34,734 nt of DNA from a virus (lineage: Duplodnaviria; Heunggongvirae; Uroviricota; Caudoviricetes). Position numbers and translations under genes: made by a program. This document shows, in pieces, positions 10,684-28,098 of this stretch. The notes below the pieces were generated by a model. It was not told the origin of the DNA. It saw nothing but the letters and a program-made list of their open reading frames with translations, and did no database searches. The stretch lies in the IMG/VR virus record IMGVR_UViG_2531839454_000020, one strand, 5' to 3'. Positions within the stretch are counted from its first letter, which is position 1, and every line of letters starts with the position of its first letter.

Positions 10684-10728
10684 TAACCAACGGGGGCGCA
10701 ATGTCCCCAATTAATTAAAGGTGATTAA

Positions 10729-12729
10729 ATGCTTAAATTTCGCCGCGATCTTAACGGTTACGGTGGAGTTATTAACGAAGGGCATAACGATCAATACGAA
10801 TTTGAAATTGCTTTCTCCAGTGAACAGCCGTATCAGCGCCAATTCTGGGATGAGCAAAATCAAGAGATGGGGGTACTAGATGAAATTCTGGTACATACAC
10901 CGGAAGCGGTTGATCTGTCTCGTCTGAATAATAACGCTCCATTGCTGTTCAATCATAATTTCGATAATCATTTAGGTGTAGTCTGCGACGCTCGAATCGA
11001 TGCGGATAACGTAGGTCGTGCTCTGGTTAAATTCTCTAAGCATGGCACTTTGGCTAATGATATTCGCAATAAAGTCATTGAAGGTACGATGGAAAAAATT
11101 TCTGTCGGCTATGACATTAAAGAATATCACATCGATTACGCCAAAGGGCAATTGATTGTTACTAAGTGGGCGCCCTATGAACTCTCATTTGTCACCGTTC
11201 CTGCTGACGATACGGTCGGTTTAAATCGCTCTCTAAATACTATCACAGTTAATTTGGAGGCTAAACGCGATATGACTAAAGAACAAATTGAAGAAATCAA
11301 AGAAGAACAAGAATCCGCTCAGGTTGAAGAAACTCCGGTAGAAGAAATTAAAGAATCGGAAGTTGAAGAAACTCAAGAGCGCCAAGTTGAAGAGAATAAA
11401 GAAGATGAAAATCTCGAAGACGGAAAAGACGCTGAACATCCTGAAAGTGTTGATGATGATAGTTCAACTGTTCGGGAAGAAGAAATAAAAGAAGAACGTG
11501 AAGCTGCTCCGGTTGAAGAAGAAAAAATCGAAGAAGTGGCTGAACGTTCCGAAGAAGACGAATTAGAAATTCGCGAAATTGCACGCGAACTAAATATTGA
11601 TGACGAAGAATTGAAACGCGCATTGGCAATTAAAGACATGACGCCGGAAGCATTCCGCACTAAGGCACTAAATAATCTCGTCAATGCTCAACGTAATAAC
11701 GAACAAATTAAGGACTCTAAAATGGAAAAAACTTTTGACCTGAACAACGTAATTCGCTCTCTGGTAGATGGTGCTGCTCTGGGTGCTAACGAAGCTGAAT
11801 ATTCCTCTATGGCTGCTGGTGCTGCGATGCAGCGTGGTCGTGCTGCTCGTGGGGGCTCTGTATTCGTTCCGGCTGCTGCTCTGCGTGCTGCTGCTGATGG
11901 TAACACCAAAACTACTCTGACCGCTGTAACTGACGAAAAACTGATGACTGAATCCTACATCGAAATGCTGATGCCGGAATCTGTTCTGGGTCGTCTGGGT
12001 GTGACTGTTTACAGTGGCTTGAACTCCCCGACCGCTATTCCAAAAATGACCGCTTCCAGCGTTGACGCTTTCGGCTTCGTTGATGAAAACGGTGCTGCAC
12101 CGGAAAGCAAAGCTGAATTTGCGAACGTGAAACTGTCTCCGAAAACTTTTGCTGGTGGCAACCCGATCAGCCGTCAGTCGCTGAAAACCGTTCCGGGCAT
12201 CGCTACCCTGATCACTGATCACATTAACAAAGCTGTTCGTATCAAACTGGAACAACTGATTCTGTCTGATAAAGAAAATGCTCGTGGTCCGGCTGGTCTG
12301 GTTAAGCAACTGGTAGACGCTAGCCGCGTTACCAAGAAAGCTGCTTTCTCTTATAAAGACTTCCTGAAAGAAATTGCAGCACTGACCGACGCTGGCGTTC
12401 CTGCTCAGGCGATCAAGTTTGCAATGAGCGGTGCAACTGCTGCTGAACTGGAATCTACCCTGAAAGATAACGGCGTTTCCGGTTATATCATCGAAAACGG
12501 CAAACTGGCTGGTTACGAAGTAGTTACTTCTGGCGTTATCCCGGCAGACCACATCGTTCTGGGTGACTTCTCCGGTATTACTATCGGTGAGTGGGGAGGT
12601 CTGGAACTCGACATGGATCTAACTACATATAGGGATCGTGGTGCGGTAGTGCCTCGTATCTTTGTAGATTTGGACTACGTTGTAGCACAGCCGGAAGCCC
12701 TGAAAGTTCTTCACATCTCCGCTGAATGA
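10729..12729 (+). CDS. prohead protease - scaffold-like acidic linker - major capsid protein fusion (666 aa)
   Basis: N-terminal ~190 aa protease-like region, then an E/K-rich segment (EQIEEIKEEQESAQVEETPVEEIKESEVEE...), then a ~350-aa HK97-like capsid region. Antisense minus-strand ORFs here are artefacts. Confidence 0.7.
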   Translation: MLKFRRDLNGYGGVINEGHNDQYEFEIAFSSEQPYQRQFWDEQNQEMGVLDEILVHTPEAVDLSRLNNNAPLLFNHNFDNHLGVVCDARIDADNVGRALVKFSKHGTLANDIRNKVIEGTMEKISVGYDIKEYHIDYAKGQLIVTKWAPYELSFVTVPADDTVGLNRSLNTITVNLEAKRDMTKEQIEEIKEEQESAQVEETPVEEIKESEVEETQERQVEENKEDENLEDGKDAEHPESVDDDSSTVREEEIKEEREAAPVEEEKIEEVAERSEEDELEIREIARELNIDDEELKRALAIKDMTPEAFRTKALNNLVNAQRNNEQIKDSKMEKTFDLNNVIRSLVDGAALGANEAEYSSMAAGAAMQRGRAARGGSVFVPAAALRAAADGNTKTTLTAVTDEKLMTESYIEMLMPESVLGRLGVTVYSGLNSPTAIPKMTASSVDAFGFVDENGAAPESKAEFANVKLSPKTFAGGNPISRQSLKTVPGIATLITDHINKAVRIKLEQLILSDKENARGPAGLVKQLVDASRVTKKAAFSYKDFLKEIAALTDAGVPAQAIKFAMSGATAAELESTLKDNGVSGYIIENGKLAGYEVVTSGVIPADHIVLGDFSGITIGEWGGLELDMDLTTYRDRGAVVPRIFVDLDYVVAQPEALKVLHISAE

Positions 12730-12866
12730 ACTCCTGTAGAACCTTCTGAACCTTCCCCCGATTTGGGGGAAGAAAATCTGATTCCATCTCAGGAAGAAGA
12801 AGTTCAAGAGGTTACGGCGAAAGCCACAGTTAAAAAAGAACGTAAGACTAAAGCAAAATAATAATT

Positions 12867-12895
12867 AGCCCTGCCTTAATGGTGGGGCTTTTTTG
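12867..12895 (+). terminator. intrinsic terminator downstream of the capsid gene
   Basis: agccctgcc/ggtggggct stem followed by tttttt; lies after the 44-codon in-frame extension, not directly after the capsid stop. Confidence 0.6.
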
Positions 12896-12925
12896 TATGT
12901 AAATACTCCATAAAGGGGGGTAACT

Positions 12926-13216
12926 ATGTTCAAATTATCAGAATCACAATTATCAAGAATGTTCCGAAGTGCTCCTGTATTTTCGGTGGAAGGTGGTAAA
13001 TCAATTCGTGCTTATCATGAAATTACTACTACCGACGAACAAGGGGTAATGACAGAAACAGAATTTCTATTCTGTCGTGAGGGAGACTTAAAGCAGGGTG
13101 ATATTGTCATTGTAGAAAATCAGCGTTTCAAAGTTCAATATATTAAGCGCAATGGTGATAATACTTGTGATTGCTTTATCACTTTAGCAGGGGGTACACA
13201 TGCTCGCTACCGTTAA
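12926..13216 (+). CDS. head-tail joining/neck protein (96 aa), hypothetical
   Basis: SD AAGGGGGG; position between capsid and tail genes. Confidence 0.4.
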   Translation: MFKLSESQLSRMFRSAPVFSVEGGKSIRAYHEITTTDEQGVMTETEFLFCREGDLKQGDIVIVENQRFKVQYIKRNGDNTCDCFITLAGGTHARYR

Positions 13217-13622
13217 TAATATGCCGAGACTGAAAATCAAACGCGCCTTGCAAGATATTATCGAACAAGATTTAGGTCTGGCTTTAAACGTAGAACAAAC
13301 TCAGCAAGGTTTTAGTAATGACGTGGTTTGTTGGATTACTGGCATGAATGAGACTTACACTAGGGTCCGTGGCGGTAATGCAATGCAAGCTGAGTGTGTT
13401 ATCGAAATGCAATTATATTCCCAAATTCATGAAACCAAAATCCATGAGGGTATTTGCCAGATAATCCAGATTCAGCCGGATAACCCACGTTTTAAAGATA
13501 TGGGATTCTCTATTTCAGATATCACTCCAGTAGCCTCTAATACCGATTATGACGATGATTCTAGTGATGGGGGTATCGTTGGGACACTTAGCCTTAAATT
13601 TTCTTATCTAGCGCGTTTTTAA
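13200..13622 (+). CDS. head-tail joining or tail completion protein (140 aa), hypothetical
   Basis: Overlaps previous gene by 17 nt (coupled); SD GGGGGT. Confidence 0.4.
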   Translation: MLATVNNMPRLKIKRALQDIIEQDLGLALNVEQTQQGFSNDVVCWITGMNETYTRVRGGNAMQAECVIEMQLYSQIHETKIHEGICQIIQIQPDNPRFKDMGFSISDITPVASNTDYDDDSSDGGIVGTLSLKFSYLARF

Positions 13623-13631
13623 GGGGTAATA

Positions 13632-14465
13632 ATGAATATTACACAAGATAACTTAGACATTTTCACGGGGTCGCATGTTGAAGTCTCCGTGTCTACTATG
13701 GTGGATAACCAGCCGGACTTTTTCGATCCTGCATTTAGTCCTATCGAGAACATCGCAGCATTTCCGACGATAACCGAATCCACAGAGATCCAGACGTTAG
13801 AAGAATATGACCATGATGTTACTGGTAAGTTGGCTGGCTATCGTAAACTTGAATCAACAACACTCACAGTAAACCGTGTTCTGGATGATGAACATCAAGC
13901 AATGTTGATGAAAGCGGTAGAGGATAAAACCCCTTTACGCTTCCGTATGTTCTATGTTGTGAACTCTGGCTATAGTGCTGCTAACACAGGATACTACGTC
14001 ATTTTTGATGCATACGTCACATCACACAAAACCCGTGGTAGCGATAACAAAGTTACTACCATCGAATTTAAATTAGATCCTGATGGTGGGATTCTCGACC
14101 GTGGTATTGCCACCGAAGGCCGGATCTTACGTCAAGGTGATTTTGGTTTGGGTGCTGGTGTAAATCCATTCACGGGTCCGATTGATAGCGAAGCATTAGC
14201 CGGAAACCGTTTCGTAACCTATCAGGGATCGAGCGCATCTAACCCATTTAGTGCTGATACTTCACTAATTCACGTTCAACCTAATGAAGATGGAGGATGG
14301 CAATTAACTTGCACCGCTTCCGGCGCACCACGTTTACGAGTTCGCACAGTCCAGAAAGACGGTAATTCTGGATGGGTGAAAGTGTATTCCACAGAAGAAA
14401 AACCGACACCAGCCGAGATTGAAGCCGTTTCTATCCATGACCGGATCGATTTCGGGGAATACTGA
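13632..14465 (+). CDS. structural protein (277 aa) with C-terminal Ig-like region; tail tube- or decoration-like
   Basis: SD AAGGGGT; C-terminal LTCTASGAPRLRVRTVQKDGNSGWVKVYS suggests a Big_2/Ig-like fold as seen on some major tail or decoration proteins. Confidence 0.4.
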   Translation: MNITQDNLDIFTGSHVEVSVSTMVDNQPDFFDPAFSPIENIAAFPTITESTEIQTLEEYDHDVTGKLAGYRKLESTTLTVNRVLDDEHQAMLMKAVEDKTPLRFRMFYVVNSGYSAANTGYYVIFDAYVTSHKTRGSDNKVTTIEFKLDPDGGILDRGIATEGRILRQGDFGLGAGVNPFTGPIDSEALAGNRFVTYQGSSASNPFSADTSLIHVQPNEDGGWQLTCTASGAPRLRVRTVQKDGNSGWVKVYSTEEKPTPAEIEAVSIHDRIDFGEY

Positions 14466-14491
14466 TTGCTTCTCTAAATAAAACATGACGC

Positions 14492-14523
14492 GGGGAGGTT
14501 AACGCCTCCCTTATTCCTGTTTT
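14492..14523 (+). terminator. intrinsic terminator upstream of the fibre gene
   Basis: gggagg-ttaacg-cctccc followed by T-rich ttattcctgtttt. Confidence 0.5.
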
Positions 14524-14538
14524 ATATGAGGTGATTAG

Positions 14539-17500
14539 ATGCAATCAATCCAATTTAAACGAACTAATGTTTCTGGCAAAAAACCAACGCCGGAACAATT
14601 ACAGGTCGGTGAGGTAGCAATCAACCTTAAAGACCATGTTATTTTTACCAAAGACCGAGATCATGAAGTAGTTCAAATCTCTGTTTCTCCTGAAACTCAC
14701 GCGGCACTAGAATCTAAAGTTGATGCTAATAAAAAAGAACTGGATAGCACAATTGTAGTAAACGACCGCAATATTCACGCTAAAGTAGATGAAATTAAAC
14801 AAACTACTGATGCAACAATCGCAGCAAATCACGCAGAAATTAACAATAAAGTTGATGTAATTAAACGCGAAACCGACGCGACAATCGAGGCCAATAAAAA
14901 TAAAGCTGCTTCCGATCTTGCTGGTGTTAAAGCTGAATTGTCGGATACCATCAACGCTAATAAAAATGCGGCTGCTGTAGCAACTCAGGAACTGGACACC
15001 CGCATCAATAAAAAAGTTGATGATATTAAATCCCGTACCGATGCAACCATCGTAAGCAATCACAAAGCAATCAATGACAAAGTTGATTTGATTAAGGCAG
15101 AAACTGACCGCACTATCGCAGCAAATCACGCCTATGCGGAAAATCAGTTAACTGACACCTACAATAACCTTACTGGTGTGATTGCAGCCAATAAGCAAGA
15201 GGCAGCGGATAACGTCGCAGCATTAACCCGTGATGTTGAAGCCAAAAATACAGCAATTCATAGCAAAGTTGACAATAACAAGTCTTACACTGATTCTGAA
15301 TTGGCACGCTTAGAAAGCCGTATTGATGCAGCCGATGGATCAAGTGATGGTAAGTACATCAAAAAGCACGTAAACACTTGCACTGATGGCTATTTGCTGT
15401 CTAAGACCGCAAACCCTTTTGATGATCCGAGTGCTCTTAATCTTGATTACTTTGGTGCATTTCGCATGAATGACCTGGCGGGTCATATTGCAATGATCTT
15501 GCATGTTCCGCACCCATCCGGCGTTAATCATGCTCGTGGTTTTGAGTTCACTTATGGGTCTAATCCACATGCTACTGTAAGAACATACGGCTATGATGAA
15601 TTGGGACATTTGGCATATTCTCACCGCATGTATCATGAAGGTGATAAACCTACTCCGGCTGAAATTGGCGCATATTCGAAAGCAGAAATTGACCGACTGT
15701 TCCAGAAGACGCTTAATTTTGGTATCGAGGGTGGTTGGTTTAAACTAGGCACTTTGACAATGCCACAACAACACGGTCGCACGGCTAAGATCCGTTTGGT
15801 AGGTGGTAACGGTTATAACGTAGGACATAATGGAAAAGCCAATATTATCGAATTGGTGATTCGATGCGGCAACAATAGCCCGAAAGGTGTTGTATTCAAT
15901 GCGTATTATACTATTTGGCATTATGAACAACATTTTTGCGCTATTCCAACCGATGGCGACAATTACGATCTTTACGCTTACTACGGTGCACATACAGGAT
16001 TTGTTTTAGCAGAATATCAAGTTTCTTCCGGTGGTGTTTCTTTAAACCTGTTGGATACTCCTGAATATCTGGGTGGTGAAAAACCTGTTGCAGATGAAAT
16101 TTTTGATGCTCTTAACATTTCATCGTTCAATAACTTTAGCAACCGTGGGACGTTAAATTTTGCTGGCAATCATCAAGGCCAATATGATATTGAGCATTTA
16201 AACGAACAACCGACAAATGCTAAAAAGATGTTGCGTCGCTTCCGTAGTTGTGCACCAGCTACAATCTGGCATGAGACAGTTGATGATAACGCATATCGTC
16301 TTGCTACTGGATACGAAGATACAAATCAGGAATTATTGCTGACAGCAACATCCGGGTTACATGTCAAGAAATTAACATTGGATGGCGGTGTTACTGGAAA
16401 TTCTGGTATTGATATTCGTCGAGGACCAAACGAATCAAGTCATTTTAATTTCATGGATTATCGCACTGGACAAGATGTTCGTAATGGTTGGTTTGGTTTT
16501 GGTGATGGAACAACCAAAGATTTTATTTGGTGGAACGATAACGGTCAAAACTCTATAAACCTGATTGAAGATGGTGAATTGCATATTACTGGCGGTAAAG
16601 GCCAGAAAATTGTAATGAATAGCGAAGTTGCATTATCTGAAAATGCTCGTTTGGCTGTCAAAGGTGGTAACTATGGCTTAATTTTTAGAAATGATGGCGT
16701 TGGCTTCCATATTCTTACCACAGATCTCGGTGATTCATTTGGACCGTGGAATACTCGTAGACCATTCAGCTATAATTTTGCTGACGGTGGATTATATTTA
16801 GGTGGCACTGAAACTGCTCGTTGTTTGCATCTTGGAATTGATGGTAGTACCCGTCTTGAAGACAACCTTTTCTTTAAAGCTGGTTCTCGTCAATCTATGG
16901 ACTATATGGAACTCGTCCATTGGGGGGCAAGCAATACAGGTCGAAATAACGTTTTAAGTCTTCGTGACTCAAAAGGATTTTTCGCAGAATTTGAACGATT
17001 GGGTGATAATACCATTAAAAACACCTTCTTCGGGAAACTTAAAGTTAATCGTGGTTCTGACGCAATCGTCATGAATGCCGAAACGGGTGATTCGTCTATA
17101 TATTTGCTGGGTACTTGTGCTGATAATAACAACTGGTATATCGGTAAAGGTGGTGCTGATAATGGATTAGCGTTCTATAGCTATGCTACTAATGCTGCTA
17201 TCAATATTACAAACGCGGGTGATATCGCGCTAAGTCCAAAAGGTGTCGAAATGACTCATGTCAATAACGTTCGATTCTATGTTCATGGTGAACGTTGGAC
17301 TGCTAGCCAATCTGGAGGTTGGGGCGATCAATGGGGATTAGAAGCGCCGATATTTGTCGATCATGGTTATGTAGGACCAGATAGCTATTATCCAATTATT
17401 AAAGGAAGAAGTTTAATCACCAATCAAGGGTATACAACTGCCGTCGATTTTGGTATGCGTCGTGTTCCTCAAAATTGGGGGCAAGCAATTATTCGCGTTG

Positions 17501-17949
17501 GATCTGCGGAGGCATCGCCAGCGGCTGGTCATCCTCAAGCGGTGTTTGAATTTCATCATGATGGTACTTTCTATTCTCCTGGTAATGGTAACTTTAACGA
17601 TGTTTATATTCGTTCCGATGGTCGTCTGAAAATTAATGTTGAAGATTACGAAGAAAATGCGGTGGATAAGGTAAATAAACTCAAAGTTAAAACCTACGAT
17701 AAAGTTAAATCTCTTAATGACCGAGAAGTTATAGGTCATGAGATTGGTATTATCGCACAGGATTTACAAGAGGTATTACCGGAAGCTGTTAAAACCGCAA
17801 AAATTGGTGGTCTTGATAACCCAGAAGAAATTTTAACAATTTCAAACTCCGCAGTGAACGCGCTTTTAATTAAAGCGGTCCAAGAAATGAGCGAAGAAAA
17901 TAAACTTCTTCGTGAACGTCTTGCTGCAATTGAAGCTAAATTAGGGTAA
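14539..17949 (+). CDS. L-shaped-type tail fibre with C-terminal intramolecular chaperone (peptidase S74-like), 1136 aa
   Basis: N-terminal FKRTNVSGKKPTPEQLQVGEVAINLKD; four KVD-x-IK-xx-TD-x-TI-xx-NH repeats; C-terminal ~110 aa beginning S|DGRLKINVEDYE and ending in a coiled coil, as in auto-cleaving chaperone domains of T5-type fibres and endosialidases (recalled). Confidence 0.75.
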   Translation: MQSIQFKRTNVSGKKPTPEQLQVGEVAINLKDHVIFTKDRDHEVVQISVSPETHAALESKVDANKKELDSTIVVNDRNIHAKVDEIKQTTDATIAANHAEINNKVDVIKRETDATIEANKNKAASDLAGVKAELSDTINANKNAAAVATQELDTRINKKVDDIKSRTDATIVSNHKAINDKVDLIKAETDRTIAANHAYAENQLTDTYNNLTGVIAANKQEAADNVAALTRDVEAKNTAIHSKVDNNKSYTDSELARLESRIDAADGSSDGKYIKKHVNTCTDGYLLSKTANPFDDPSALNLDYFGAFRMNDLAGHIAMILHVPHPSGVNHARGFEFTYGSNPHATVRTYGYDELGHLAYSHRMYHEGDKPTPAEIGAYSKAEIDRLFQKTLNFGIEGGWFKLGTLTMPQQHGRTAKIRLVGGNGYNVGHNGKANIIELVIRCGNNSPKGVVFNAYYTIWHYEQHFCAIPTDGDNYDLYAYYGAHTGFVLAEYQVSSGGVSLNLLDTPEYLGGEKPVADEIFDALNISSFNNFSNRGTLNFAGNHQGQYDIEHLNEQPTNAKKMLRRFRSCAPATIWHETVDDNAYRLATGYEDTNQELLLTATSGLHVKKLTLDGGVTGNSGIDIRRGPNESSHFNFMDYRTGQDVRNGWFGFGDGTTKDFIWWNDNGQNSINLIEDGELHITGGKGQKIVMNSEVALSENARLAVKGGNYGLIFRNDGVGFHILTTDLGDSFGPWNTRRPFSYNFADGGLYLGGTETARCLHLGIDGSTRLEDNLFFKAGSRQSMDYMELVHWGASNTGRNNVLSLRDSKGFFAEFERLGDNTIKNTFFGKLKVNRGSDAIVMNAETGDSSIYLLGTCADNNNWYIGKGGADNGLAFYSYATNAAINITNAGDIALSPKGVEMTHVNNVRFYVHGERWTASQSGGWGDQWGLEAPIFVDHGYVGPDSYYPIIKGRSLITNQGYTTAVDFGMRRVPQNWGQAIIRVGSAEASPAAGHPQAVFEFHHDGTFYSPGNGNFNDVYIRSDGRLKINVEDYEENAVDKVNKLKVKTYDKVKSLNDREVIGHEIGIIAQDLQEVLPEAVKTAKIGGLDNPEEILTISNSAVNALLIKAVQEMSEENKLLRERLAAIEAKLG
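17617..17946 (+). other. predicted auto-cleaved intramolecular chaperone domain of the fibre
   Basis: Begins at the Asp of ...YIRS|DGRLK...; 110 aa to the stop. Confidence 0.55.
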
Positions 17950-17987
17950 TTGGAAAGCGGGGAGAAATCTCCGCTAAGGATTCTTAT

Positions 17988-18284
17988 ATGGGATATTGGG
18001 TAAGTAGTGAAATTAATACTAAAATCGATGCTTTAAAATGGCATGTATTTGATATTCCTAACGGCTATGGTACTGCTCGTGCTGGTGTCGCTGTAATGCG
18101 TCATAATGCTGGTGGTGGGTGGTCTGATGCACATATTAACGTAGATGGTTTGACCGTTGCTCGTCGTCGTGGTGGGACCAATTGGGGATCTACTATAAAT
18201 TCGTTTGTTCCTGCTGGCTGCACCGTCTCCTTTGGTTTAGGGGGTGAAGGTGGTGTTGAATATTTTAAATTCATGGAGTTTTAA
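17988..18284 (+). CDS. small Gly-rich protein, paralog 1 of 3 (98 aa), function unknown
   Basis: MGYWVSS...FDIPNGYG...CTVSFGLGGEGGVEYFKF; AAGGA SD. Confidence 0.6.
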   Translation: MGYWVSSEINTKIDALKWHVFDIPNGYGTARAGVAVMRHNAGGGWSDAHINVDGLTVARRRGGTNWGSTINSFVPAGCTVSFGLGGEGGVEYFKFMEF

Positions 18285-18286
18285 TT

Positions 18287-18592
18287 ATGGCTGGATGGAT
18301 AAATCAAAGAATGTCAAACGCTATTAGTATTTGGGCTAATGGTGGATATTTTGATATCCCCAACGGCTGGGTTACTGATTCATGCGGAATTGTTTTTGCT
18401 CATATGGAAGCCATTAACGGTGCTGGTGATCTTGATTCTGAATTGGCTGTAAATGGATTGATTGAATCAGGTCATCATGCTGGTGATGCTGGGAGTTGGG
18501 GCGCTAGTTCTTTAGTTGGCGCTGGTGCTACCGTTAGCTTTACATTGGGTAAAGGTAGTTTGCATTATTTTAAATTCAGGAGAATGCACTAA
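18287..18592 (+). CDS. small Gly-rich protein, paralog 2 of 3 (101 aa), function unknown
   Basis: MAGWINQ...FDIPNGWV...ATVSFTLGKGSLHYFKF; starts 3 nt after paralog 1; SD GGAG. Confidence 0.6.
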   Translation: MAGWINQRMSNAISIWANGGYFDIPNGWVTDSCGIVFAHMEAINGAGDLDSELAVNGLIESGHHAGDAGSWGASSLVGAGATVSFTLGKGSLHYFKFRRMH

Positions 18593-18894
18593 TGGCATTT
18601 TGGGTAGATGGCGCTTTGGGGAATAGGGCGGGTAAAGCAAATCAAGGATGGTTTGATATTCCTAACGGTTGGACAGCCGACGCTTTCGGGACTATTTCAT
18701 TCTGTGCTCATTCTTCCGGTGGTGGCGGTGGTGACTCTGAATTGCTTATTCATGGTTTGTGTGTTTCTGGAAGCCATAAGGGTCATGATTGGGGACAGAT
18801 TCATTCTTGTATTGCACCGCAAGGGGCGGTAATTACCGTTAGCACAAATAGGGGGATCGCTCATCTTCGTTATAGACGTTTGAGCAACCGCTAA
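18592..18894 (+). CDS. small Gly-rich protein, paralog 3 of 3 (100 aa), function unknown
   Basis: MAFWVDG...FDIPNGWT...AVITVSTNRGIAHLRY; start overlaps the stop of paralog 2 (TAATG). Confidence 0.6.
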   Translation: MAFWVDGALGNRAGKANQGWFDIPNGWTADAFGTISFCAHSSGGGGGDSELLIHGLCVSGSHKGHDWGQIHSCIAPQGAVITVSTNRGIAHLRYRRLSNR

Positions 18895-18948: not shown

Positions 18949-19419
18949 ATGACTACTAAATTTGATATTTTTTCTGGTGGCCTCGTTGGTCTGTTTCTGC
19001 ATGAAGAAGTAACTAACACCGATCTTGACAGTGAAAGCTATCTGGAAATTCCAGAATGTGCGGCTTTCCCGGAAACTGGTGTAGAACGTTCTACTGTCGA
19101 TGTTCCTAACTTCGGTGGTCCGTATAACCGTAAGCTGGTTGGTCGTATGTCTGTACCGGATATCGAACTTTCGATCAACTACATGCCGGGTAACGAAGTA
19201 CACGAAAAACTGATTAAAGCAACCGAAGACGGTAAGCGCGTACAGATTAAAATTGCTTACTACATCGACGCTACGAAAAAATCTGGTGTACATATCGCTT
19301 ATAACGGCTTCCTGTCTAAAACTACCATGACTGGTGGTGAGGATGCTGTAGTAGGCCGTACCTTCACCTTTGTAGTAGATGGTGCTCCGGTTAAACAAGC
19401 TGTTTTCCAGAAACTCTAA
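18949..19419 (+). CDS. major tail (tube) protein, putative (156 aa)
   Basis: Directly upstream of the G/T chaperone pair and tape measure; strong SD GAAGGAAAAG; followed by a strong terminator. Confidence 0.5.
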   Translation: MTTKFDIFSGGLVGLFLHEEVTNTDLDSESYLEIPECAAFPETGVERSTVDVPNFGGPYNRKLVGRMSVPDIELSINYMPGNEVHEKLIKATEDGKRVQIKIAYYIDATKKSGVHIAYNGFLSKTTMTGGEDAVVGRTFTFVVDGAPVKQAVFQKL

Positions 19420-19427
19420 TATTATCT

Positions 19428-19452
19428 AGCCATCCTTCGGGGTGGCTTTTTT
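19428..19452 (+). terminator. intrinsic terminator after the major tail gene
   Basis: agccatcc-ttcg-gggtggct followed by tttttt. Confidence 0.65.
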
Positions 19453-19501
19453 GTTTCCAATTCTAAATAAACATATCTAATTAACTTAAGAGGAAACAAG
19501 A

Positions 19502-19810
19502 ATGAATATTAATGAAATGCTGAAAGCTCTTTCTCCGAAACGCGAATCTCTGACCATCGGTGGATTCACTTTCTATGCTCGCCCTATGTCAGTAAAAGAA
19601 TTTAACGAACATGTTTTCAATACCGATAAAGATGACCGTGATGAACGTTCTATTCTTCGTTGTATTGAAGATGAAGACGGTAAACCAGTATTTGAATCTA
19701 TGGAACAAGTTAAGGCACTGTATACTAACGTCCGCAGTGAATTAATCGGTTTGGTTGCTCAAGCGTCATTGATGCAAGATCCGGCAGTAATTGAAAACGA
19801 GGTAAAGTAA
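19502..19810 (+). CDS. tail assembly chaperone (lambda G-like), 102 aa
   Basis: Position before the tape measure; SD AAGAGGAAA. Confidence 0.55.
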   Translation: MNINEMLKALSPKRESLTIGGFTFYARPMSVKEFNEHVFNTDKDDRDERSILRCIEDEDGKPVFESMEQVKALYTNVRSELIGLVAQASLMQDPAVIENEVK

Positions 19811-19839
19811 ACCCGCTTCTGAATTTCTATTTCCGGCAA

Positions 19840-20181
19840 ATGATGCGATCGGGGCTTAGTAAAGATGAAATGGATAATATGCCAATCACTCTATTTTGGA
19901 AATTATACATTTTCGACACCTACTTAGAACCACAAAGCCCCGCGTTTCATGATATGCAGAATGCGATGTTGCAATATTCCATGTATATGACGTCGCAAGG
20001 AATGACACGCGAAACTGCAAAGAAACTCAAGCCTAGCCAATTCCAATTAATTAGAGAAGAAAAACTCTTTAAAACTAAAGAAGAACTGGAAGAAATTGCA
20101 CGCAAGAAAGAAGAAGAACGTAAAGCGGCAATGCTGAACATGTTTGATCCATCTTTGCTTGAGAAACTCAGAAGCGGTTAA
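19840..20181 (+). CDS. tail assembly chaperone T-like ORF, probably expressed as a G-T fusion by -1 frameshift
   Basis: ORF is in the -1 frame relative to G and opens at 19795, before the G stop (19808); no SD before its first ATG; A-AAG shifty site directly before the G stop. Confidence 0.45.
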   Translation: MMRSGLSKDEMDNMPITLFWKLYIFDTYLEPQSPAFHDMQNAMLQYSMYMTSQGMTRETAKKLKPSQFQLIREEKLFKTKEELEEIARKKEEERKAAMLNMFDPSLLEKLRSG

Positions 20182-20192
20182 AGGGGTAATTT

Positions 20193-22622
20193 ATGACAAA
20201 ACATATAGTAACAATAGAAGGGGATAATAAAGGGCTAAAGAGAAGTACCAATGAAGCCGCCGACCTTCTCGATAGTTTGTCTGAAAAGGCAAGTAATATT
20301 GATTTTGGTGGTGGCTTATCTGGTCTGACTGGATCTCTTCGTGGGATCGCTGGCTCTGCTGGTTTGGCTGCTGGTGGTATTGGCTTAGTTGCGACCGCAG
20401 TGGTTGCAGCCGCTAAAGCTGGTGCGGAATACGTTAAACAGTATTCAGAAGTATCTAAGGCGACCGGACTCTCGATTGAATCCCTTCAAAGACTAGAAAA
20501 GGAATTTTCTGGCACTGGCTTAACAGTTGAAAAATTCGGTGATATCAACAAAGACACCTTAGATAAAATGGGTGATGCATGGGCTAACGGTGGCGGTATT
20601 GCCGATGACTTAGAATCGGTTGGCCTTAAGTTAGAAAACTATGCTCACTTCATGACTGATCCGCAAGGTGGTATGAAAGCGGCGATCCAAGTGTTCTATG
20701 ACATGAAGAAAGCCGGAAAATCAATGGCTGAAATCAAGTTCATGATGGAATCTTTAGCCAGTGATTCAAGCCATATGACCAGCCAGCTTGAGAAATATAA
20801 TACTGCTCAAGAGGCGATGATCGCTATTCAGAATCAATCTGTTAACGTCACCGAAGAAAACGCTAAAAAATATGATAAATTTTCTCAAAATATCAATAAG
20901 CTGGAAAATAACCTGAAAGGTGTCGGTATGACCATTTCTGGTCCGCTGGTTGATAGTTTAAACTGGTTATTTGACTGGTTTAATATTGATTGGGAAAAGA
21001 GTTCTCTATTCAGGGCATTAGATCGACTGAATAAAGAAGGCAAGACCGCAACTGGCGGTATTCTTAACGCCAACCATAAAGACGCTCAAAAAATTATTGA
21101 CAAGTACAATAAAGAAAAGCGTTGGAATAATCTGGCAGATTGGGAAAAGGCCGCGATCCGTGGTGCTGGTGTCGATCCTCGTACTGCTGGCTTTGATGTT
21201 GAAGGATTTAAGAAACGTTTTGGTGATTCTTATAAGAAAAATGGCTCTCTGATTGTTGTCGATAACGGGGAACATCTGACACGCAAGGCAGATCCTAACA
21301 CTGATTTGACTATACCAAATAAACCAGTAAGACCAGAATCATTGGGTAAATCTGGCAACGAGAAGAAAGCCGAAGAAGAAGCACGCAAGAAAGCGGAAGA
21401 GGCAGCTAAAAAGGCTAAGGAAGCCGCAGAAAAAGCACAGAAAGAACGCGAGGACGCAATCAAGCGACTGAATGCACTTGATGTTAAATTGCAAGGGCAG
21501 GTTGCCGCGTCTATTGCTTCTCAAAACAAGCAGTTAGAAGCCAGTTTGAAAGATTTGGATACTGCTTTAGCTCTGGGCTTAATCTCTCAGGAAGACGCAG
21601 CCGCGAAACGCCAGGCGCTAATCGATCAGAATACTGAAAACGTATACAAAATGGTCTTAGGTGCTGATCCGGTTGATGCTCTGAATGCTTTAACACAATT
21701 GCAACAAATCAGGGACAACGAGTTAGAAAGCCATAAACGGTTACTTGATGGTAAGGCTATCTCCTACGAAGAATATATGCGTCGTGTGAATGATACCGAA
21801 CAAAGTTATTCACAGATTGAAGATTCTTTGCATGGAATGGATGGTTTTAAAACCAATCAATTGACCAATAGCTTAGACTATCAGGACTCAAATAATCCGT
21901 TTGCTAAATTTAATGCAATCGATAAAGAGAAATCGGATGCTGAACAAGATTATAAGACCGATAAACTCAAGATTGATGGGATCACCGATCCGGCTAAACG
22001 GATGGAAGAATTAGAAAAACTCAATGAAAACCATCAAAAACGAATGGCTGCAATTGAGAAGAAATATGCTGATGCTCGCCAGTCAATAGCCGATGATATG
22101 TACGGCGGTTTTGCTGCTGCAATGACTCTCTTCGGGCAGGAAAACACTAAAGCTATGCAGATGGCTTTCAATGCTCATAAAGCATTCTCTATCGGACAAG
22201 CGACGGTGAACATGTGGACGGCTGCTACCGATGCATGGAACGATCCGACCAACGTCACCACAGGTCAAAAAATCGCGGCTGCTGCATTGGCTGTTTCTCA
22301 GAACATGGGGAACATCGCAAACATCAAGTCTACTAACGTTAGCGGTATGGCTCATGATGGTATTGATAACATCCCTCGTGAGGGTACATGGTTGCTTGAT
22401 AAGGGTGAACGAGTAGTTGATCAGCGTACTAACGGTGATTTGAAAGACTTCCTTGCTGCTCAAAAATCAGGTGGGGGTAACTCTCAGCCGATTGAAGTTA
22501 ATGCGCCTTTGAACATTAACGGCAACGTTAATAGCTCAGACAAGATGGTCATGGATGCTATCAAACGTCACGCTAAGTTTGTTGCTCAGGCGATAGAAGA
22601 CGTTCAGCGTCGTAAGATGTAA
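20193..22622 (+). CDS. tape measure protein (809 aa)
   Basis: Long protein after the chaperone pair; Gly/Ala-rich N-terminal segment and K/E/A coiled-coil stretches (EEEARKKAEEAAKKAKEAAEKAQKE). Confidence 0.75.
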   Translation: MTKHIVTIEGDNKGLKRSTNEAADLLDSLSEKASNIDFGGGLSGLTGSLRGIAGSAGLAAGGIGLVATAVVAAAKAGAEYVKQYSEVSKATGLSIESLQRLEKEFSGTGLTVEKFGDINKDTLDKMGDAWANGGGIADDLESVGLKLENYAHFMTDPQGGMKAAIQVFYDMKKAGKSMAEIKFMMESLASDSSHMTSQLEKYNTAQEAMIAIQNQSVNVTEENAKKYDKFSQNINKLENNLKGVGMTISGPLVDSLNWLFDWFNIDWEKSSLFRALDRLNKEGKTATGGILNANHKDAQKIIDKYNKEKRWNNLADWEKAAIRGAGVDPRTAGFDVEGFKKRFGDSYKKNGSLIVVDNGEHLTRKADPNTDLTIPNKPVRPESLGKSGNEKKAEEEARKKAEEAAKKAKEAAEKAQKEREDAIKRLNALDVKLQGQVAASIASQNKQLEASLKDLDTALALGLISQEDAAAKRQALIDQNTENVYKMVLGADPVDALNALTQLQQIRDNELESHKRLLDGKAISYEEYMRRVNDTEQSYSQIEDSLHGMDGFKTNQLTNSLDYQDSNNPFAKFNAIDKEKSDAEQDYKTDKLKIDGITDPAKRMEELEKLNENHQKRMAAIEKKYADARQSIADDMYGGFAAAMTLFGQENTKAMQMAFNAHKAFSIGQATVNMWTAATDAWNDPTNVTTGQKIAAAALAVSQNMGNIANIKSTNVSGMAHDGIDNIPREGTWLLDKGERVVDQRTNGDLKDFLAAQKSGGGNSQPIEVNAPLNINGNVNSSDKMVMDAIKRHAKFVAQAIEDVQRRKM

Positions 22623-23932: not shown

Positions 23933-24352
23933 ATGCTAAAAACTAGGCTTATCACCGATTACATCAATTCTTTAATAGGTCAGGAGTTCGTTCAAGGCGA
24001 GAATGATTGCAATATAATTGCATGTAAGATCATCGATATTCTCGCTGGTACTGACCTATATAATTCTCTTTATAAAAAATATTCAACTAAAGAAGAAGGC
24101 TTGAAAATCTGCAAAGAATTAAGCGGATACACAAATATCCTTCAACCAATTAAGAAACATTTCAAATTAGTCACTGATGATTTACAGGACGGCGACTTAC
24201 TGGTCACAGCCCACAAATTAGGAAACCGCAAATATTATTCCGTAGTTCCTCATTATTCCGGTTATGGCCTCGTTGAAGAAGATGGTATCTGGATGACCAT
24301 TCCTGTTTCAGACATTGACTATGAACAAGTTTATAGATTCGGGGGGGAATAA
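23933..24352 (+). CDS. tail assembly protein (lambda K-like, NlpC/P60-type), 139 aa
   Basis: Start at MLKTRL with GGAGGT SD; ENDC motif suggests an NlpC/P60-type catalytic Cys; stop overlaps the next start. Confidence 0.45.
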   Translation: MLKTRLITDYINSLIGQEFVQGENDCNIIACKIIDILAGTDLYNSLYKKYSTKEEGLKICKELSGYTNILQPIKKHFKLVTDDLQDGDLLVTAHKLGNRKYYSVVPHYSGYGLVEEDGIWMTIPVSDIDYEQVYRFGGE

Positions 24353-27300
24353 TGGGATTTGAAATATTGGTAGGCGCGGTTATTGCTGGTGCGTCTGCTG
24401 GGATGGCTGCTGCTGCAACATTTTCTGTTATGACCGCAGTCGCTATCGGTATGGCTGCTGGTGCAATGACCTTGATCGCTTCCACTGTAGGCGCACCAAA
24501 AACACCGAAAGTACAAAGCCCAGATAATGCGGTGACACTAGGAACATCAAACGATCCTAAGACAGTATTCCCCGTTCTTTTCGGTACTACCCGCACGGGT
24601 GCAATCTGCGTTTACAAAGCAATTTCACAGCGTGAAAACAACAAACTGGTACAAATTTTTGCTATTTCCGAAGGTGAGATCGATCACTTTAAAGCACTGC
24701 ACATCGATAATAAAAACGTTCTCATTAGCCAGAATATGACAATTCGTGATGGCATTCTCGATAAAGGAAACATTAAAGACGAATACCGCAAAGTTTTAGA
24801 AGTCGAGTTTCGCACGGGTAAAAATCCTAACACTGCATTGGATTTAGCTAAACATCATTTGGGCGCTGATTGGGATGATCGGTATCAGGGTAACGGCATT
24901 GCGACCATGTGTATTGTTTTACGTCGTGATGACAAATCTTTGGCTGCTGGTGTTGATATTCTCCAGCCTAATAGCCAGGTAGCGGTCGATGTTATGGGCT
25001 TAAAGATTCGTAACCTTGAAACCAATGCTATTGAGGCTAGCACTAACGGCGTGGACCAGATTTTCCATTATCTGACAAATACAAAGTATGGTCTTAGTGT
25101 ACCGATTGAAAATATTAACGTTGATTCATTCCTGAAAGTGCGTAAACAAGTACGCCAGATGGATTTACATTCCAACGGTGCATGTGATCCGAACGCCAGC
25201 TTTAAAGAGAACTTAACTAGCCTTATGCAGACTTTCGGCGGGGTGATGTTCGAATCCTTTGGACGTATTACGCTGAAACTGGATGCTCCTGATATTGTTA
25301 AGCATACTTTCAATGAAGACAATATCATGATGGGTAAGGTATCACTGAAAACAGGTGGCACTAACGGTTATTTCAATACCATTAACGCGATGTATCAAGA
25401 ACCATCAATCGACTATTCAGAGCAAATGCTACGTTATCCGGCTGATGCTGAAAACGATGCTACTATTCGTCAAGATGGTCGAATTATCGCTAAAGATATC
25501 GAATATCGTTTTGTTAAGTCTAAAGCCCAGATTGATAAACTAGCAAGTATTGAACGAAATAAATCTCGTATCACTCAGGTTATCAGCTTTATGACTACTG
25601 ACGCGTTCACTGCCGAAGTGTGGGATGTTATTAGCGTTACCTATGATGAATTGAAACTGAATAATTCACTTTGGCGCATTACTGCAATTGATCGTTCTAT
25701 TGATTCTGGTATTGCTGGGATGATGACTATCACCGCTACAGAATATAATTCTCAGGTTTATACTGACCTGAACTATGCGGCGACTCCAGACAATAGACCT
25801 ACTGGTTTACCGGATTCAATGACAGTACAGAAACCGACTAATTTCAGAATTAAGGCAACTGGTGAGACAATCCACGGTAAAAACGTTACTTTGACATGGG
25901 ATGCACCGGAAGATTTTAACCGCTACGGTTTCCAGATTGATTATCGTGTGAGTGGATCACCTAACTGGATTAAGCTGGGACAGACTTCACAGCAAATTTT
26001 CAATATCAATGCACTGGCAAAAGATCGTTCCTACGATTACCGCGTTTGTGCTTTCGGTATTATTGCTCGTTCCGAATGGGTGGAACTGGTTAACCAGAAT
26101 CCAGAAGTTACCTATGAACTGCCTACGCCAGTGATCCGCATCAAAAATCAGGGTGGCACACCAGGAACTTTTGAAGGCAATGATCTGATTATCGAATGGG
26201 ATAACCAGCAACAATTAGATGTGATGATCAACGGTGAAGCTAACAAGTTTAGTGACCTGTTTGAAGCATACATTATCAAGGTAACTAACAAGGCTGGTAA
26301 GTCTATTCAGTACCGTACCCGCGATCCTGAATCATGGACGTATACGCTTGATATGAACCAGTTTAACGGCCTTTCGCGTCAACTGACGGTAGAAGTATCA
26401 GCTAAGGGCTATAACAACTCAGAGAGCGCCCCAGCGCGTTTAGTGGCTATCAACCCACAACATAAGCCGATGAAAGGTTTTAGTGCGCGTGGTGGCTTTA
26501 ATACTGCGTTTGTTAGCTGGGCGGATGACGTAGAACATGACTATGCAGGGTCAATCATCCAGTATGCAACCGATAATACTTTCTCCGATGCAAGGGCAGT
26601 GACTACCAATAGCGTTAGTCATACTTCCTTTGATTTGGCTGACGGGGATTATTATATCCGTGGTGCTCACTATGATATTTTCGGTATGGATGATGCTGTT
26701 TGGTCTGAACCGTATTTCATGCAAATGAAATCTACCATTAGCTGGGACGATCAGGACAAAGAAGCACTGGAAGACCTGATTGGTTTACAAGATCGCTTAG
26801 ATGAAACCATCGCGGATGCTATTGCTCAAGCTGGCGCTAATGCCGATGCTAAGATTGATGCAATGCATAAACAGATTACTACCGAAACCGGAAAGACGGT
26901 CCAAGCCTCAGCCGATACCCTTAAGAATCTGATTGCTACCAGTGAGCAAGCCAGCGCAACTAAGATTGATCAGGTTAAAGCTGAACTGAAAGGCGATATC
27001 ACCAAAGAAGTTAGCGCATCCGCTACTACCCTGAAACAAGCAATTGCTACCAGTGAGGCAGCAAGCGCAAGTAAGATTGATCAAGTTCGGGTAGAAATGG
27101 ATGGCAAGATTGCTGGTGTGAATCAGGAAGCAGATGTAAAAATCGATGCTTTGAAGGGAACCATTAACAGCAAATATAATCTGGCAGTTAATGCAGATGG
27201 TCGCGTGGCTGGTATTCATATGAGCGCAACCAATGATCCGGCAGAACCGACAAGAATCATCTTTACGGCTGATAAAATCGCGGTAGCTCCACAAGACGGA

Positions 27301-28098
27301 TCAGAAGTTTGTCCGTTTGGCATCGAAGATAACAAAGTTTATCTTGATAATGCGATGATTCGTAATGCTGCAATTGGCACAGCCCAGATTAGTGATGCTA
27401 GTATCACCACGGCTAAGATCGGCACAGCCCAGATTAACGGCGCTCACATCCAACACGCACAGATCGGAACAGGTCATATCATTGATGGCTCTATCGATAA
27501 TGCTAAAATTGGTAACTATATCCAGTCTTATAACTGGAATGGTAACGATGGATGGTATATCGGCAAAGATGGCACTTGTCATTTTAGACACGCTAATATT
27601 CGTGGTCATTTGGTGGCTGATTCCGGCGAAATGAACAACGTAACGATTAATTCAAGTTGCCGCATTTTGGGTATGCTTGATGCTAATCAGGTGCGTGGTG
27701 ACTTCGTGAAAGTGGTTGGTAGGAGTTTCCCGCATCGCCAACCAAACTGGCCTGATGGTACAATCACTGTAAGGGTCGAAGATGATCATCCATTCGATCG
27801 CCAAATAGTGATTCCAGCGATTCATCATAACGGGTCTGTTCGTAGTGGCGAAAGTAGCGATCATTGGGATACTTGCCGACTAATCGTTAAGAAAAATGGT
27901 GGTGTTCTATATGATCGCACTGCAACTTCTGGCTGTATGTACAGTGGAGTTATTGACATGCCAGCCGGACACGGGGCAGTAACAATGACTTTTGAAGTTT
28001 ACTGTAAGGGCGTTAACAACTATAACCCAAGTGCATATATCAGCGATCTAACGGTAATGGTAACTAAGAAAGCCGCTACTGGTATTTCTGTTTCTTAA
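24352..28098 (+). CDS. central tail fibre / host specificity protein (lambda J-like) with gpI-like hydrophobic N-terminus, 1248 aa
   Basis: Gly/Ala-rich hydrophobic N-terminus; long central region; C-terminal DDHPFDRQIV...VIDMPAGHGAV...VMVTKKAATGISVS resembles the receptor-recognition end of lambda-type J proteins (recalled, not aligned). Confidence 0.7.
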   Translation: MGFEILVGAVIAGASAGMAAAATFSVMTAVAIGMAAGAMTLIASTVGAPKTPKVQSPDNAVTLGTSNDPKTVFPVLFGTTRTGAICVYKAISQRENNKLVQIFAISEGEIDHFKALHIDNKNVLISQNMTIRDGILDKGNIKDEYRKVLEVEFRTGKNPNTALDLAKHHLGADWDDRYQGNGIATMCIVLRRDDKSLAAGVDILQPNSQVAVDVMGLKIRNLETNAIEASTNGVDQIFHYLTNTKYGLSVPIENINVDSFLKVRKQVRQMDLHSNGACDPNASFKENLTSLMQTFGGVMFESFGRITLKLDAPDIVKHTFNEDNIMMGKVSLKTGGTNGYFNTINAMYQEPSIDYSEQMLRYPADAENDATIRQDGRIIAKDIEYRFVKSKAQIDKLASIERNKSRITQVISFMTTDAFTAEVWDVISVTYDELKLNNSLWRITAIDRSIDSGIAGMMTITATEYNSQVYTDLNYAATPDNRPTGLPDSMTVQKPTNFRIKATGETIHGKNVTLTWDAPEDFNRYGFQIDYRVSGSPNWIKLGQTSQQIFNINALAKDRSYDYRVCAFGIIARSEWVELVNQNPEVTYELPTPVIRIKNQGGTPGTFEGNDLIIEWDNQQQLDVMINGEANKFSDLFEAYIIKVTNKAGKSIQYRTRDPESWTYTLDMNQFNGLSRQLTVEVSAKGYNNSESAPARLVAINPQHKPMKGFSARGGFNTAFVSWADDVEHDYAGSIIQYATDNTFSDARAVTTNSVSHTSFDLADGDYYIRGAHYDIFGMDDAVWSEPYFMQMKSTISWDDQDKEALEDLIGLQDRLDETIADAIAQAGANADAKIDAMHKQITTETGKTVQASADTLKNLIATSEQASATKIDQVKAELKGDITKEVSASATTLKQAIATSEAASASKIDQVRVEMDGKIAGVNQEADVKIDALKGTINSKYNLAVNADGRVAGIHMSATNDPAEPTRIIFTADKIAVAPQDGSEVCPFGIEDNKVYLDNAMIRNAAIGTAQISDASITTAKIGTAQINGAHIQHAQIGTGHIIDGSIDNAKIGNYIQSYNWNGNDGWYIGKDGTCHFRHANIRGHLVADSGEMNNVTINSSCRILGMLDANQVRGDFVKVVGRSFPHRQPNWPDGTITVRVEDDHPFDRQIVIPAIHHNGSVRSGESSDHWDTCRLIVKKNGGVLYDRTATSGCMYSGVIDMPAGHGAVTMTFEVYCKGVNNYNPSAYISDLTVMVTKKAATGISVS

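Follow-up and report, generated by a model that had tools for sequence, protein, structure and literature searches.

Probable programmed -1 frameshifting at G_GUA_AAG between the tail assembly chaperone frames G and T of an Escherichia coli siphovirus-type prophage

The plus strand of the window, i.e., the whole stretch of 34,734 nucleotides that was analysed in this study, carries a siphovirus-type tail module in which the genes for a tail fibre, a tube protein, and a small protein G are followed by a reading frame T and the gene for a tape measure protein. [quoted passage not shown] How ribosomes come to translate the T frame is the question that this locus raises. We propose that they enter it from G by a programmed -1 frameshift of a lambda/HK97-type tail chaperone pair in a siphovirus-type prophage of E. 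coli, and we put the probability of this reading at roughly 87%.

The features of the locus are listed in Table 1. G ends in GAA AAC GAG GTA AAG TAA, in which AAG occupies positions 19805-19807 and TAA positions 19808-19810. The -1 frame is closed upstream by a TGA at 19792-19794, is open from 19795 to a stop at 20179-20181, and reads AAA CGA GGT AAA GTA AAC CCG CTT CTG from its opening. The overlap of the two frames is 16 nt long if the stop codon is counted and 13 nt if it is taken to end with the last base of AAG. The initial annotation, which had described a T-like ORF in the -1 frame opening at 19795 inside the end of G, was correct in all of its coordinates. Upstream of G, the relatives of the tube gene in RefSeq carry the label "phage tail tube protein". 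In the hairpin region between the tube gene and G, a 39-nt query stretch is 95% identical to the T4-like phage vB_EcoM_G2494 by megablast, and a "terminator" is annotated beneath the match.

Table 1. Features of the tail module and of the G/T junction in the window
Feature	Position	Strand	Remarks
Tail fibre gene	14539..17949	+	Part of the tail module
Three small paralogous ORFs	Between tail fibre and tube genes	+	
Major tail (tube) protein gene	18949..19419	+	phrog_158, E = 3.7e-20; weak match to Pfam Phage_TTP_12
Intrinsic-terminator-like hairpin and T run in the gap between tube gene and G	19428..19457	+	8-bp stem, loop of 4, then TTTTTGTTTC
Shine-Dalgarno sequence of G (GAGGA)	19490..19494	+	7 nt 5' of the ATG; duplex energy -6.0 kcal/mol
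G-like tail assembly chaperone, zero-frame product, 102 aa	19502..19810	+	phrog_344, E = 3.3e-7
Stretch shared by the G frame and the open -1 (T) frame	19795..19810	+	Sole place where a shift can join the frames
Candidate slippery heptamer G_GTA_AAG	19801..19807	+	P site GUA, A site AAG; would re-pair to GGU AAA
TAA stop codon of G	19808..19810	+	Follows the slip codon directly; supplies U as the base of the 3' context
Linker VNPLLNFYFRQ, 11 codons, T frame	19807..19839	+	5' of the first ATG, without any start codon
T-like -1-frame segment, 124 codons plus stop	19807..20181	+	C-terminal half of the predicted 226-aa GT fusion; from ORF structure
Tail length tape measure protein gene	20193..22622	+	Directly downstream; phrog_13674, E = 5e-67

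Both profile and predicted fold identify G as a tail assembly chaperone. Its sequence gives a match below the cut-off to the Pfam family Phage_TAC_13 (E = 3e-4), which is also matched in 10 of 14 lineages, and its AlphaFold2 model, built with 22 homologues, has a pLDDT of 80. The best PDB match of this model in Foldseek is the tail assembly chaperone of HK97 (PDB accession number 2OB9; probability = 1.00, TM = 0.54-0.61). The T half is weakly tied to lambda T: it matches the Pfam family Phage_tail_T with E = 2.7e-4 and 21.8 bits, as against a cut-off of 25.9, and weak matches to the same family are found in 6 of 14 lineages. The AlphaFold2 model of this half (pLDDT of 58) was too poor for a fold search. 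An hhalign comparison of the GT profile with lambda GT gave a probability of 0.2, i.e., no detectable sequence similarity, and a sequence search of the PDB with the GT profile gave no match.

The locus was compared with those of about 50 related prophages and phages from E. coli, Salmonella, Proteus, and Edwardsiella, at 24 to 100% protein identity, and the stop codon of G, the opening of the -1 frame, and every in-frame A_AAG were located in each lineage. The overlap contains exactly one in-frame A_AAG per lineage, always at the same homologous Lys codon. For comparison, 38 of the 9780 codons in the long ORFs of the window (0.39%) are in-frame A_AAG, and the chance of finding at least one in a 5-codon overlap is about 0.019. 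When fusions are built at A_AAG, they align gap-free through the junction in 14 lineages, with 24 to 78% identity to the window fusion. The slip codon named in the initial annotation, AAG at 19805-19807 re-pairing to AAA at 19804-19806, is this conserved Lys codon. In three distant lineages, the alignment puts the slip Lys one or two columns upstream. The A_AAC at 19795-19798 (in GAA AAC) within the overlap was also considered as a slip site and rejected; it is not conserved (GAA GAA TCG, etc., in L023, L078, L086, and L087), and A_AAC is absent from the tetramers that shifted in E. coli (PMC4066793).

The surroundings of the Lys codon vary in a restricted manner. GGTAAAG is invariant in 40 of the tabulated loci, and further relatives differ in the preceding codon or in the following triplet. 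The window and most of its relatives read GAG GTA AAG TAA, L023 and L078 read TCG GTA AAG TAA, and L087 reads GCG GTA AAG TAA. In distant lineages, G_GTA_AAG is replaced at the same Lys by G_GCA_AAG (GAG GCA AAG TAA in L081), G_GAA_AAG (CTG GAA AAG TAA in L035, listed at 55% identity), A_AAA_AAG (GAA AAA AAG TAA in L070, at 25% identity, and GAA AAA AAG TCC in L082, where the stop codon follows 6 codons later), or T_TTA_AAG (AGT TTA AAG CCG in DCP80, i.e., L034, with the stop codon 10 codons later). L069 and L084 read GAG GTA AAG AAA and have the stop codon 4 codons later. In L006, a duplication of GTA yields AAG TAG TAA, which lengthens the fusion by one Val and leaves a stop codon still adjacent. 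The stop codon is thus directly adjacent in 11 of the 15 representative lineages, including the deep lineages L035 and L070, and is not adjacent in L069, L084, L082, and DCP80. The string A_AAG-UAA is kept across lineages at about 25 to 55% protein identity with changed first three bases of the heptamer.

The slip Lys codon is AAG in 15 of 15 lineages, as against 30% of the Lys codons elsewhere in the same genes, and the first base of the heptamer is identical to the first base of the P-site codon, again in 15 of 15 lineages; these do not represent 15 independent events because the lineages are related, but they comprise seven or more different codon contexts. This first base is G before GTA, GCA, and GAA, A before AAA, and T before TTA. 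The G is kept though the codon to which it belongs varies (GAG, TCG, GCG, and CTG for Glu, Ser, Ala, and Leu, respectively); elsewhere in the same genes, GAG accounts for 15% of the Glu codons and G for 21% of the third positions. The match of base 1 to the P-site codon favours slippage of two tRNAs, as in lambda, over a slip of the tRNA-Lys alone. Measured against the canonical pattern X_XXY_YYZ, G_GTA_AAG fits in its second triplet (YYY = AAA) and departs from it in the first (XXX = GGT), and re-pairing from GUA to GGU leaves a G-A mismatch at the middle position for tRNA-Val. The sites A_AAA_AAG of L070 and L082 and T_TTA_AAG of DCP80 satisfy the pattern. In the literature, a search for frameshifting at GGTAAAG or G_GUA_AAG returned nothing relevant.

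In the mechanism that we propose, most ribosomes would translate the 102 codons of G and terminate at the TAA, and a small fraction would slip back one base on G_GUA_AAG. The tRNA-Lys would move from AAG to AAA and the tRNA-Val from GUA to GGU with its first-position pair kept; the tRNA-Lys of E. coli pairs weakly with AAG, and GUA is read by a tRNA-Val carrying cmo5U34, which has a broad wobble. The shifted ribosomes would then read GUA AAC CCG in the T frame up to 20181 and produce a GT fusion with a predicted length of 102 + 124 = 226 amino acids and the sequence ...ENEVK-VNPLLNFYFRQMM... at its junction. The junction ...ENEVK|VNPLL... of the computed fusion agrees with that given in the initial annotation, and the predicted Glu-C peptide across it is VKVNPLLNFYFRQMMRSGLSKDE. 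The U of the adjacent UAA would serve as a pyrimidine context base on the 3' side; this base is U in 12 of the 15 representative lineages, and DCP80 has a C there. Shifting on A_AAA_AAG is affected by the nucleotides that directly follow it, and Bertrand et al. are said to have found in 2002 that pyrimidines there favour it. The adjacent stop codon may in addition give ribosomes that have not shifted a second chance to slip, by one tRNA, during the wait for the release factor. By analogy with lambda, G would coat the tape measure protein, and the rare GT would recruit the tube protein through its T half.

A search for stimulatory elements around the site was negative. The predicted fold of the 93 nt after the stop codon is no better than that of shuffled sequences (z = +1.1), as is that of the 191-nt context (z = -0.3), the consensus fold of seven lineages (-2.6 kcal/mol) has no covarying pair, and a search of Rfam gave no match at the site. 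The GAGG at 19799-19802 was considered as a Shine-Dalgarno-like stimulator and rejected; it abuts the heptamer, where stimulation of -1 shifting by such an element needs a spacing of about 10 to 14 nt, and it is TCGG, GCGG, or CTGG in relatives. We know of no stimulator described for lambda G/GT either, so the absence of one here is not unusual. As for the level of shifting, A_AAG is the most shift-prone tetramer in E. coli, A_AAG-type motifs without stimulators gave approximately 0.1 to 0.3% shifting in reporters, and the three best V_VV.A_AA.G heptamers gave approximately 0.3% unstimulated and approximately 3.7% with the best 3' context (PMC4066793). By comparison with these data, an efficiency of about 0.1 to 4% would be expected at the window site, and, given the values for unstimulated motifs, it could be low.

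The initial annotation had placed the slip with the TAA in the A site, i.e., it had the lambda-type mechanism operating at a shifty-stop site. In this version, peptidyl-tRNA-Lys re-pairs from AAG to AAA in the P site with UAA in the A site, and the Val codon has no role. The one-tRNA route and the heptamer route yield an identical protein product. A single tRNA in the P site is known to slip while the A site is vacant, with no need for mRNA structure (PMC6771820), and the window site has none that we could find; the adjacent stop codon in 11 of the 15 representative lineages also speaks for such a route, as does the Val codon read after the slip, which is GTA wherever the adjacent stop is present, as against 35% of the Val codons elsewhere, so that T-A-A is preserved. 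On the other hand, G_GTA_AAG is present in L069 and L084 although AAA stands in the place of TAA there, and the stop codon lies 5 to 10 codons downstream in L082, DCP80, lambda, and HK97. The match between base 1 and the P-site codon is left without explanation if only the tRNA-Lys slips, and the stop contexts (UAA-A, UAA-U, and UAA-G) are not consistently weak. We therefore regard the one-tRNA slip as a rather unlikely main route and consider that slippage would occur mainly by the two-tRNA route on the heptamer. The adjacent TAA may help the shift; it is probably not required, since four lineages as well as lambda and HK97 have no adjacent stop. Thus, the lambda-type part of the initial interpretation stands, and the shifty stop is retained as a possible aid rather than as the required site. 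A two-tRNA slip, a one-tRNA slip, and a slip of tRNA-Val before decoding of the Lys codon would all give ...VK-VN..., and protein sequencing consequently cannot separate them.

A stronger form of the same idea is that a "-1 shifty stop" has been selected, in which a second slip, by peptidyl-tRNA-Lys alone during the wait for the release factor, makes up for a weak G_GNA_AAG. We hold this form to be unlikely. If it were true, the GT:G ratio would depend on how slippage competes with termination and would change with the release-factor activity of the host, and nature would here be using a -1 counterpart of the +1 shifty stops of prfB and antizyme.

Very unlikely, in our estimation, is a locus without any frameshift, in which T is produced by reinitiation or weak initiation at the ATG codons at 19840 and 19843, 30 nt past the stop codon of G. 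Two ATGs do lie shortly 3' of that stop, reinitiation after a nearby stop codon is possible without a Shine-Dalgarno sequence, and the gene callers and PGAP annotate T as an ORF of its own. The T frame, however, is translated upstream of these codons, judging by its evolutionary signature. Between 19795 and 19840 it contains no ATG, GTG, or TTG, and the first 11 of its codons after the slip site (19807-19839) were compared in 8 distinct haplotypes. Of the 15 variable sites, 9 fall at third positions of the T frame, and the ratio of synonymous to non-synonymous codon changes is 19:8 in the T frame; the other two frames have ratios of 1:21 and 1:20. This skew towards synonymous changes indicates that the peptide VNPLLxFYFRQ is under protein-level selection. 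The two ATGs have essentially no Shine-Dalgarno sequence, with anti-SD duplex energies of -1.1 and -1.7 kcal/mol, respectively, where most ORF starts in a crude set of long ORFs from the window have -4 to -12 kcal/mol; the initial annotation was right that T lacks such a sequence. The first Met of T is not conserved (it is ATT in L078, and there is no Met at this place in DCP80), and the annotated starts are scattered among records, in which the T ORF is 62 to 123 aa long with widely varying start choices. Separate initiation would also leave unexplained the strict conservation of AAG and of the heptamer in the G frame. Neither a fused nor an independently started version of G-T was found among 31 G clusters and 68 T clusters. 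As the linker is coding and has no start codon, and as no fused ORF exists among the clusters, translation must enter the T frame from G.

A +5 hop of peptidyl-tRNA-Val from GUA at 19802-19804 to GUA at 19807-19809, which would yield ...ENEV-NPLL... and thus lack K and V, is highly improbable. Synthetic constructs in E. coli have shown hops of +5 and +6 (Weiss et al. 1987, as reported in PMC5009743), but the matched pair of codons is missing in L081 (GCA...GTA), L035 (GAA...GTA), L069 and L084 (GTA...GAA), L082, L070, and DCP80, and take-off would occur next to an ordinary codon for Lys rather than a stop or a rare codon. Finally, although a single-base frame break between the halves of one unit resembles an indel error, the chance is negligible that the arrangement stems from faulty sequencing, from decay into a pseudogene, or from slippage during transcription of the A run. 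At least 45 distinct contigs, from several genera, and 51 complete E. coli genomes share the -1 arrangement, no fused version is present in the G and T clusters, and an A run of 3 nt is too short for RNA polymerase to slip.

The prophage family that carries this site is widespread. Of 5426 complete E. coli chromosomes, 44 contain the G-T region at 95 to 99% identity (51 overall). The region is also found in 35 IMG/VR contigs, the exact G protein occurs in 638 blocks of an assembly index, and homologues of G and T are recorded in Shigella, Salmonella, Proteus, Providencia, and Edwardsiella. These counts identify the carrier as a common enterobacterial prophage and E. coli as the translating host. 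Among cultured phages there is no close DNA relative, the only megablast match being the 39-nt stretch with the terminator, and tblastn found a single distant phage, DCP80. A scan of genome contigs added only one locus, L035, on a contig that is binned as Sphingobacterium and is probably a mis-binned phage. A protein search with the fused GT sequence gave no match; G alone and T alone gave matches.

In RefSeq, G is labelled "hypothetical protein" or "cytochrome", of which the latter is wrong, and T is recorded as a separate hypothetical protein. No annotation of ribosomal slippage was found in RefSeq or in other public records of this prophage group. The initial observation is confirmed as real, its interpretation is supported in part, and its main claims are upheld: the joining of G and T by a -1 frameshift is borne out by the coding signature of the linker, by the missing start of T, and by an A_AAG that is conserved down to 24% identity. 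The window site is very probably a genuine and unannotated programmed -1 frameshift that gives rise to the 226-aa GT fusion.

The mechanism is already well known, and the general picture of tail chaperone frameshifting is unchanged by this site; what is added is a frameshift that public records of this phage family leave unannotated, in a family found in approximately 1% of complete E. coli genomes as well as in Salmonella, Shigella, Proteus, Providencia, and Edwardsiella. A GT fusion whose junction is defined can now be added to the annotation. In addition, the members of the family form a natural allelic series at one homologous site, with G_GUA, G_GCA, G_GAA, A_AAA, and U_UUA before A_AAG and with or without the adjacent stop, which could be used to gauge the contributions of P-site re-pairing and of the 3' stop to unstimulated -1 frameshifting in E. 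coli.

Among known recoding sites, the shifty stops resemble the window site in that a stop codon stands directly 3' of the shift codon. Those of prfB (CUU_UGA) and antizyme are +1 and stop dependent, whereas the window site is -1, and its stop is dispensable in relatives; the +1 site CCC_UGA of the Listeria phage PSA is another shifty stop. The E. coli dnaX site, A_AAA_AAG, shares the A-site codon and the slip of tRNA-Lys with the window site, and L070 and L082 carry A_AAA_AAG at the homologous position. dnaX, however, has an upstream Shine-Dalgarno-like stimulator and a downstream stem-loop and reaches approximately 50% shifting, and neither element is present at the window site.

Sites of the type NNA_AAG form another group. 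E. coli has a single tRNA-Lys, which decodes both AAA and AAG, and NNA_AAG sites are established -1 sites in this host, with low levels of shifting that are set by the tRNA of the upstream codon (PMC5009743). G_CGA_AAG of IS1222 and A_CGA_AAG of the Bacillus subtilis gene cdd belong to this type (Licznar et al. 2003, as reported in PMC5009743). An in-frame AAG preceded by A in a phage of E. coli fits the A_AAG/NNA_AAG class of sites for bacteria with a single tRNA-Lys(UUU). As in the IS1222 and cdd sites, the AAG follows a codon that ends in A, and tRNA-Lys would re-pair from this AAG to AAA. In the window family, unlike in these sites, base 1 is conserved as well, which suggests a role for the P-site tRNA, and IS1222 uses a downstream structure, of which none was found at the window site.

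The closest resemblance is to the tail chaperone genes of HK97 and lambda. The HK97 record has CGG GAA AAG TCT, i.e., G_GAA_AAG-U, 5 codons before the stop codon and states that the extended product is "translated due to a -1 frameshift"; the chaperone of known structure (2OB9) is the product of 7472-7858, to which the -1 frameshift adds its extension. The HK97 heptamer is identical to that of L035 and, like that of the window, non-canonical at its third base, and both loci have a putative terminator between the tube gene and G. They differ in the place of the stop codon, which in HK97 is not adjacent to the slip site, and in the aligned fold they are only 20 to 24% identical.

The programmed -1 frameshift of lambda G/GT is described by Levin, Hendrix & Casjens 1993 and Xu, Hendrix & Duda 2004, 2013, and 2014, as summarized in PMC5009743. 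Lambda and the window share the E. coli host and the gene order of tube protein, G, -1-frame T, and tape measure protein. The lambda record reads GCG GGA AAG TGT, i.e., G_GGA_AAG-U, with the stop codon of G 5 codons later and the junction ...SAGK-VFDG; both heptamers end in A_AAG and are followed by U, and the first codon after the shift encodes Val in both. Re-pairing in the P site would be imperfect on the G_GUA_AAG of the window, unlike on the G_GGA_AAG of lambda, and the overlap is 16 nt with an adjacent stop in the window as against 64 nt in lambda. The initial annotation had called the window site non-canonical, which was overstated: it is one base away from the sites of lambda and HK97, and NNA_AAG is established in E. 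coli. The site is best described as a lambda/HK97-type G_GNA_AAG-U heptamer in which N = U, with an adjacent stop that is a minor and possibly helpful feature rather than a distinct mechanism. By sequence, G_GUA_AAG-U of the window and G_GCA_AAG-U of L081 complete the G_GNA_AAG-U series of candidate slip sites in tail chaperone genes of E. coli phages.

In loci L006 and L041 of related prophages or phages (IMGVR_UViG_2778260996_000020), the junction of the G and T chaperone reading frames has undergone a natural duplication of 3 nt, located at the slip site (GTA AAG TAG TAA ACC), by which the stop codon of G becomes TAG and the predicted fusion gains one Val. This natural variant shows that such a duplication is tolerated by the slip site.

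The G-T pair encoded by L035, a 10-kb contig (JBEBQJ010000175.1) binned in a Sphingobacterium yanglingense MAG, is listed at 55% identity to the enterobacterial pair of the window and has G_GAA_AAG-TAA at its slip site. The binning is probably wrong, and L035 is more likely a phage contig. Escherichia phage DCP80 (L034; PQ671644.1, positions 9777-18342 of a 141-kb record) has a siphovirus-type module, homologous to that of the window, that comprises tube protein, G, T, and tape measure protein, and its slip site is the canonical T_TTA_AAG, which is not annotated in the record. PQ671644.1 is filed under Straboviridae/Gaprivervirus (T4-like) and may be chimeric or misclassified. In the NCBI database, the homologues (P0001-P0027) of G (19502..19810) in E. 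coli, Salmonella, Proteus, and Edwardsiella are named "cytochrome"; this name is evidently a propagated annotation error because the G protein is predicted by modeling to have the HK97 tail chaperone fold.

The tail fibre gene precedes the tube and chaperone genes instead of following the tip genes, and the window has a second large ORF for host specificity (J-like); such a mosaic gene order is unusual. Three small tandem paralogous ORFs (17988..18894; 98-101 aa each, 25-39% identity to one another) separate the tail fibre gene from the tube protein gene; they share the motif W..FDIPNGW...G.G..D...GL...G..WG, and none of them matched Pfam. These ORFs may encode receptor-binding or fibre-accessory proteins. 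In related prophages, a 168-aa Gp38_N adhesin-like gene, located between the tube gene and G, takes the place of the trio.

Features around the tube and chaperone genes of the window
Feature	Position	Strand	Remarks
Tail fibre gene	14539..17949	+	Gp34_trimer domain; C-terminal Peptidase_S74 intramolecular chaperone
Small ORF 1 of trio	17988..18284	+	No Pfam match
Small ORF 2 of trio	18287..18592	+	No Pfam match
Small ORF 3 of trio	18592..18894	+	No Pfam match
Terminator	19428..19457	+	Strong hairpin and T-run; separates G from the tube protein gene
Second large host-specificity (J-like) ORF	24352..28098		

The terminator probably lowers the expression of the chaperone relative to that of the tube protein. 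A 39-nt stretch spanning it has 95% identity to T4-like coliphages, in which an annotated terminator lies beneath the match, and a putative terminator occupies this position in HK97 as well.
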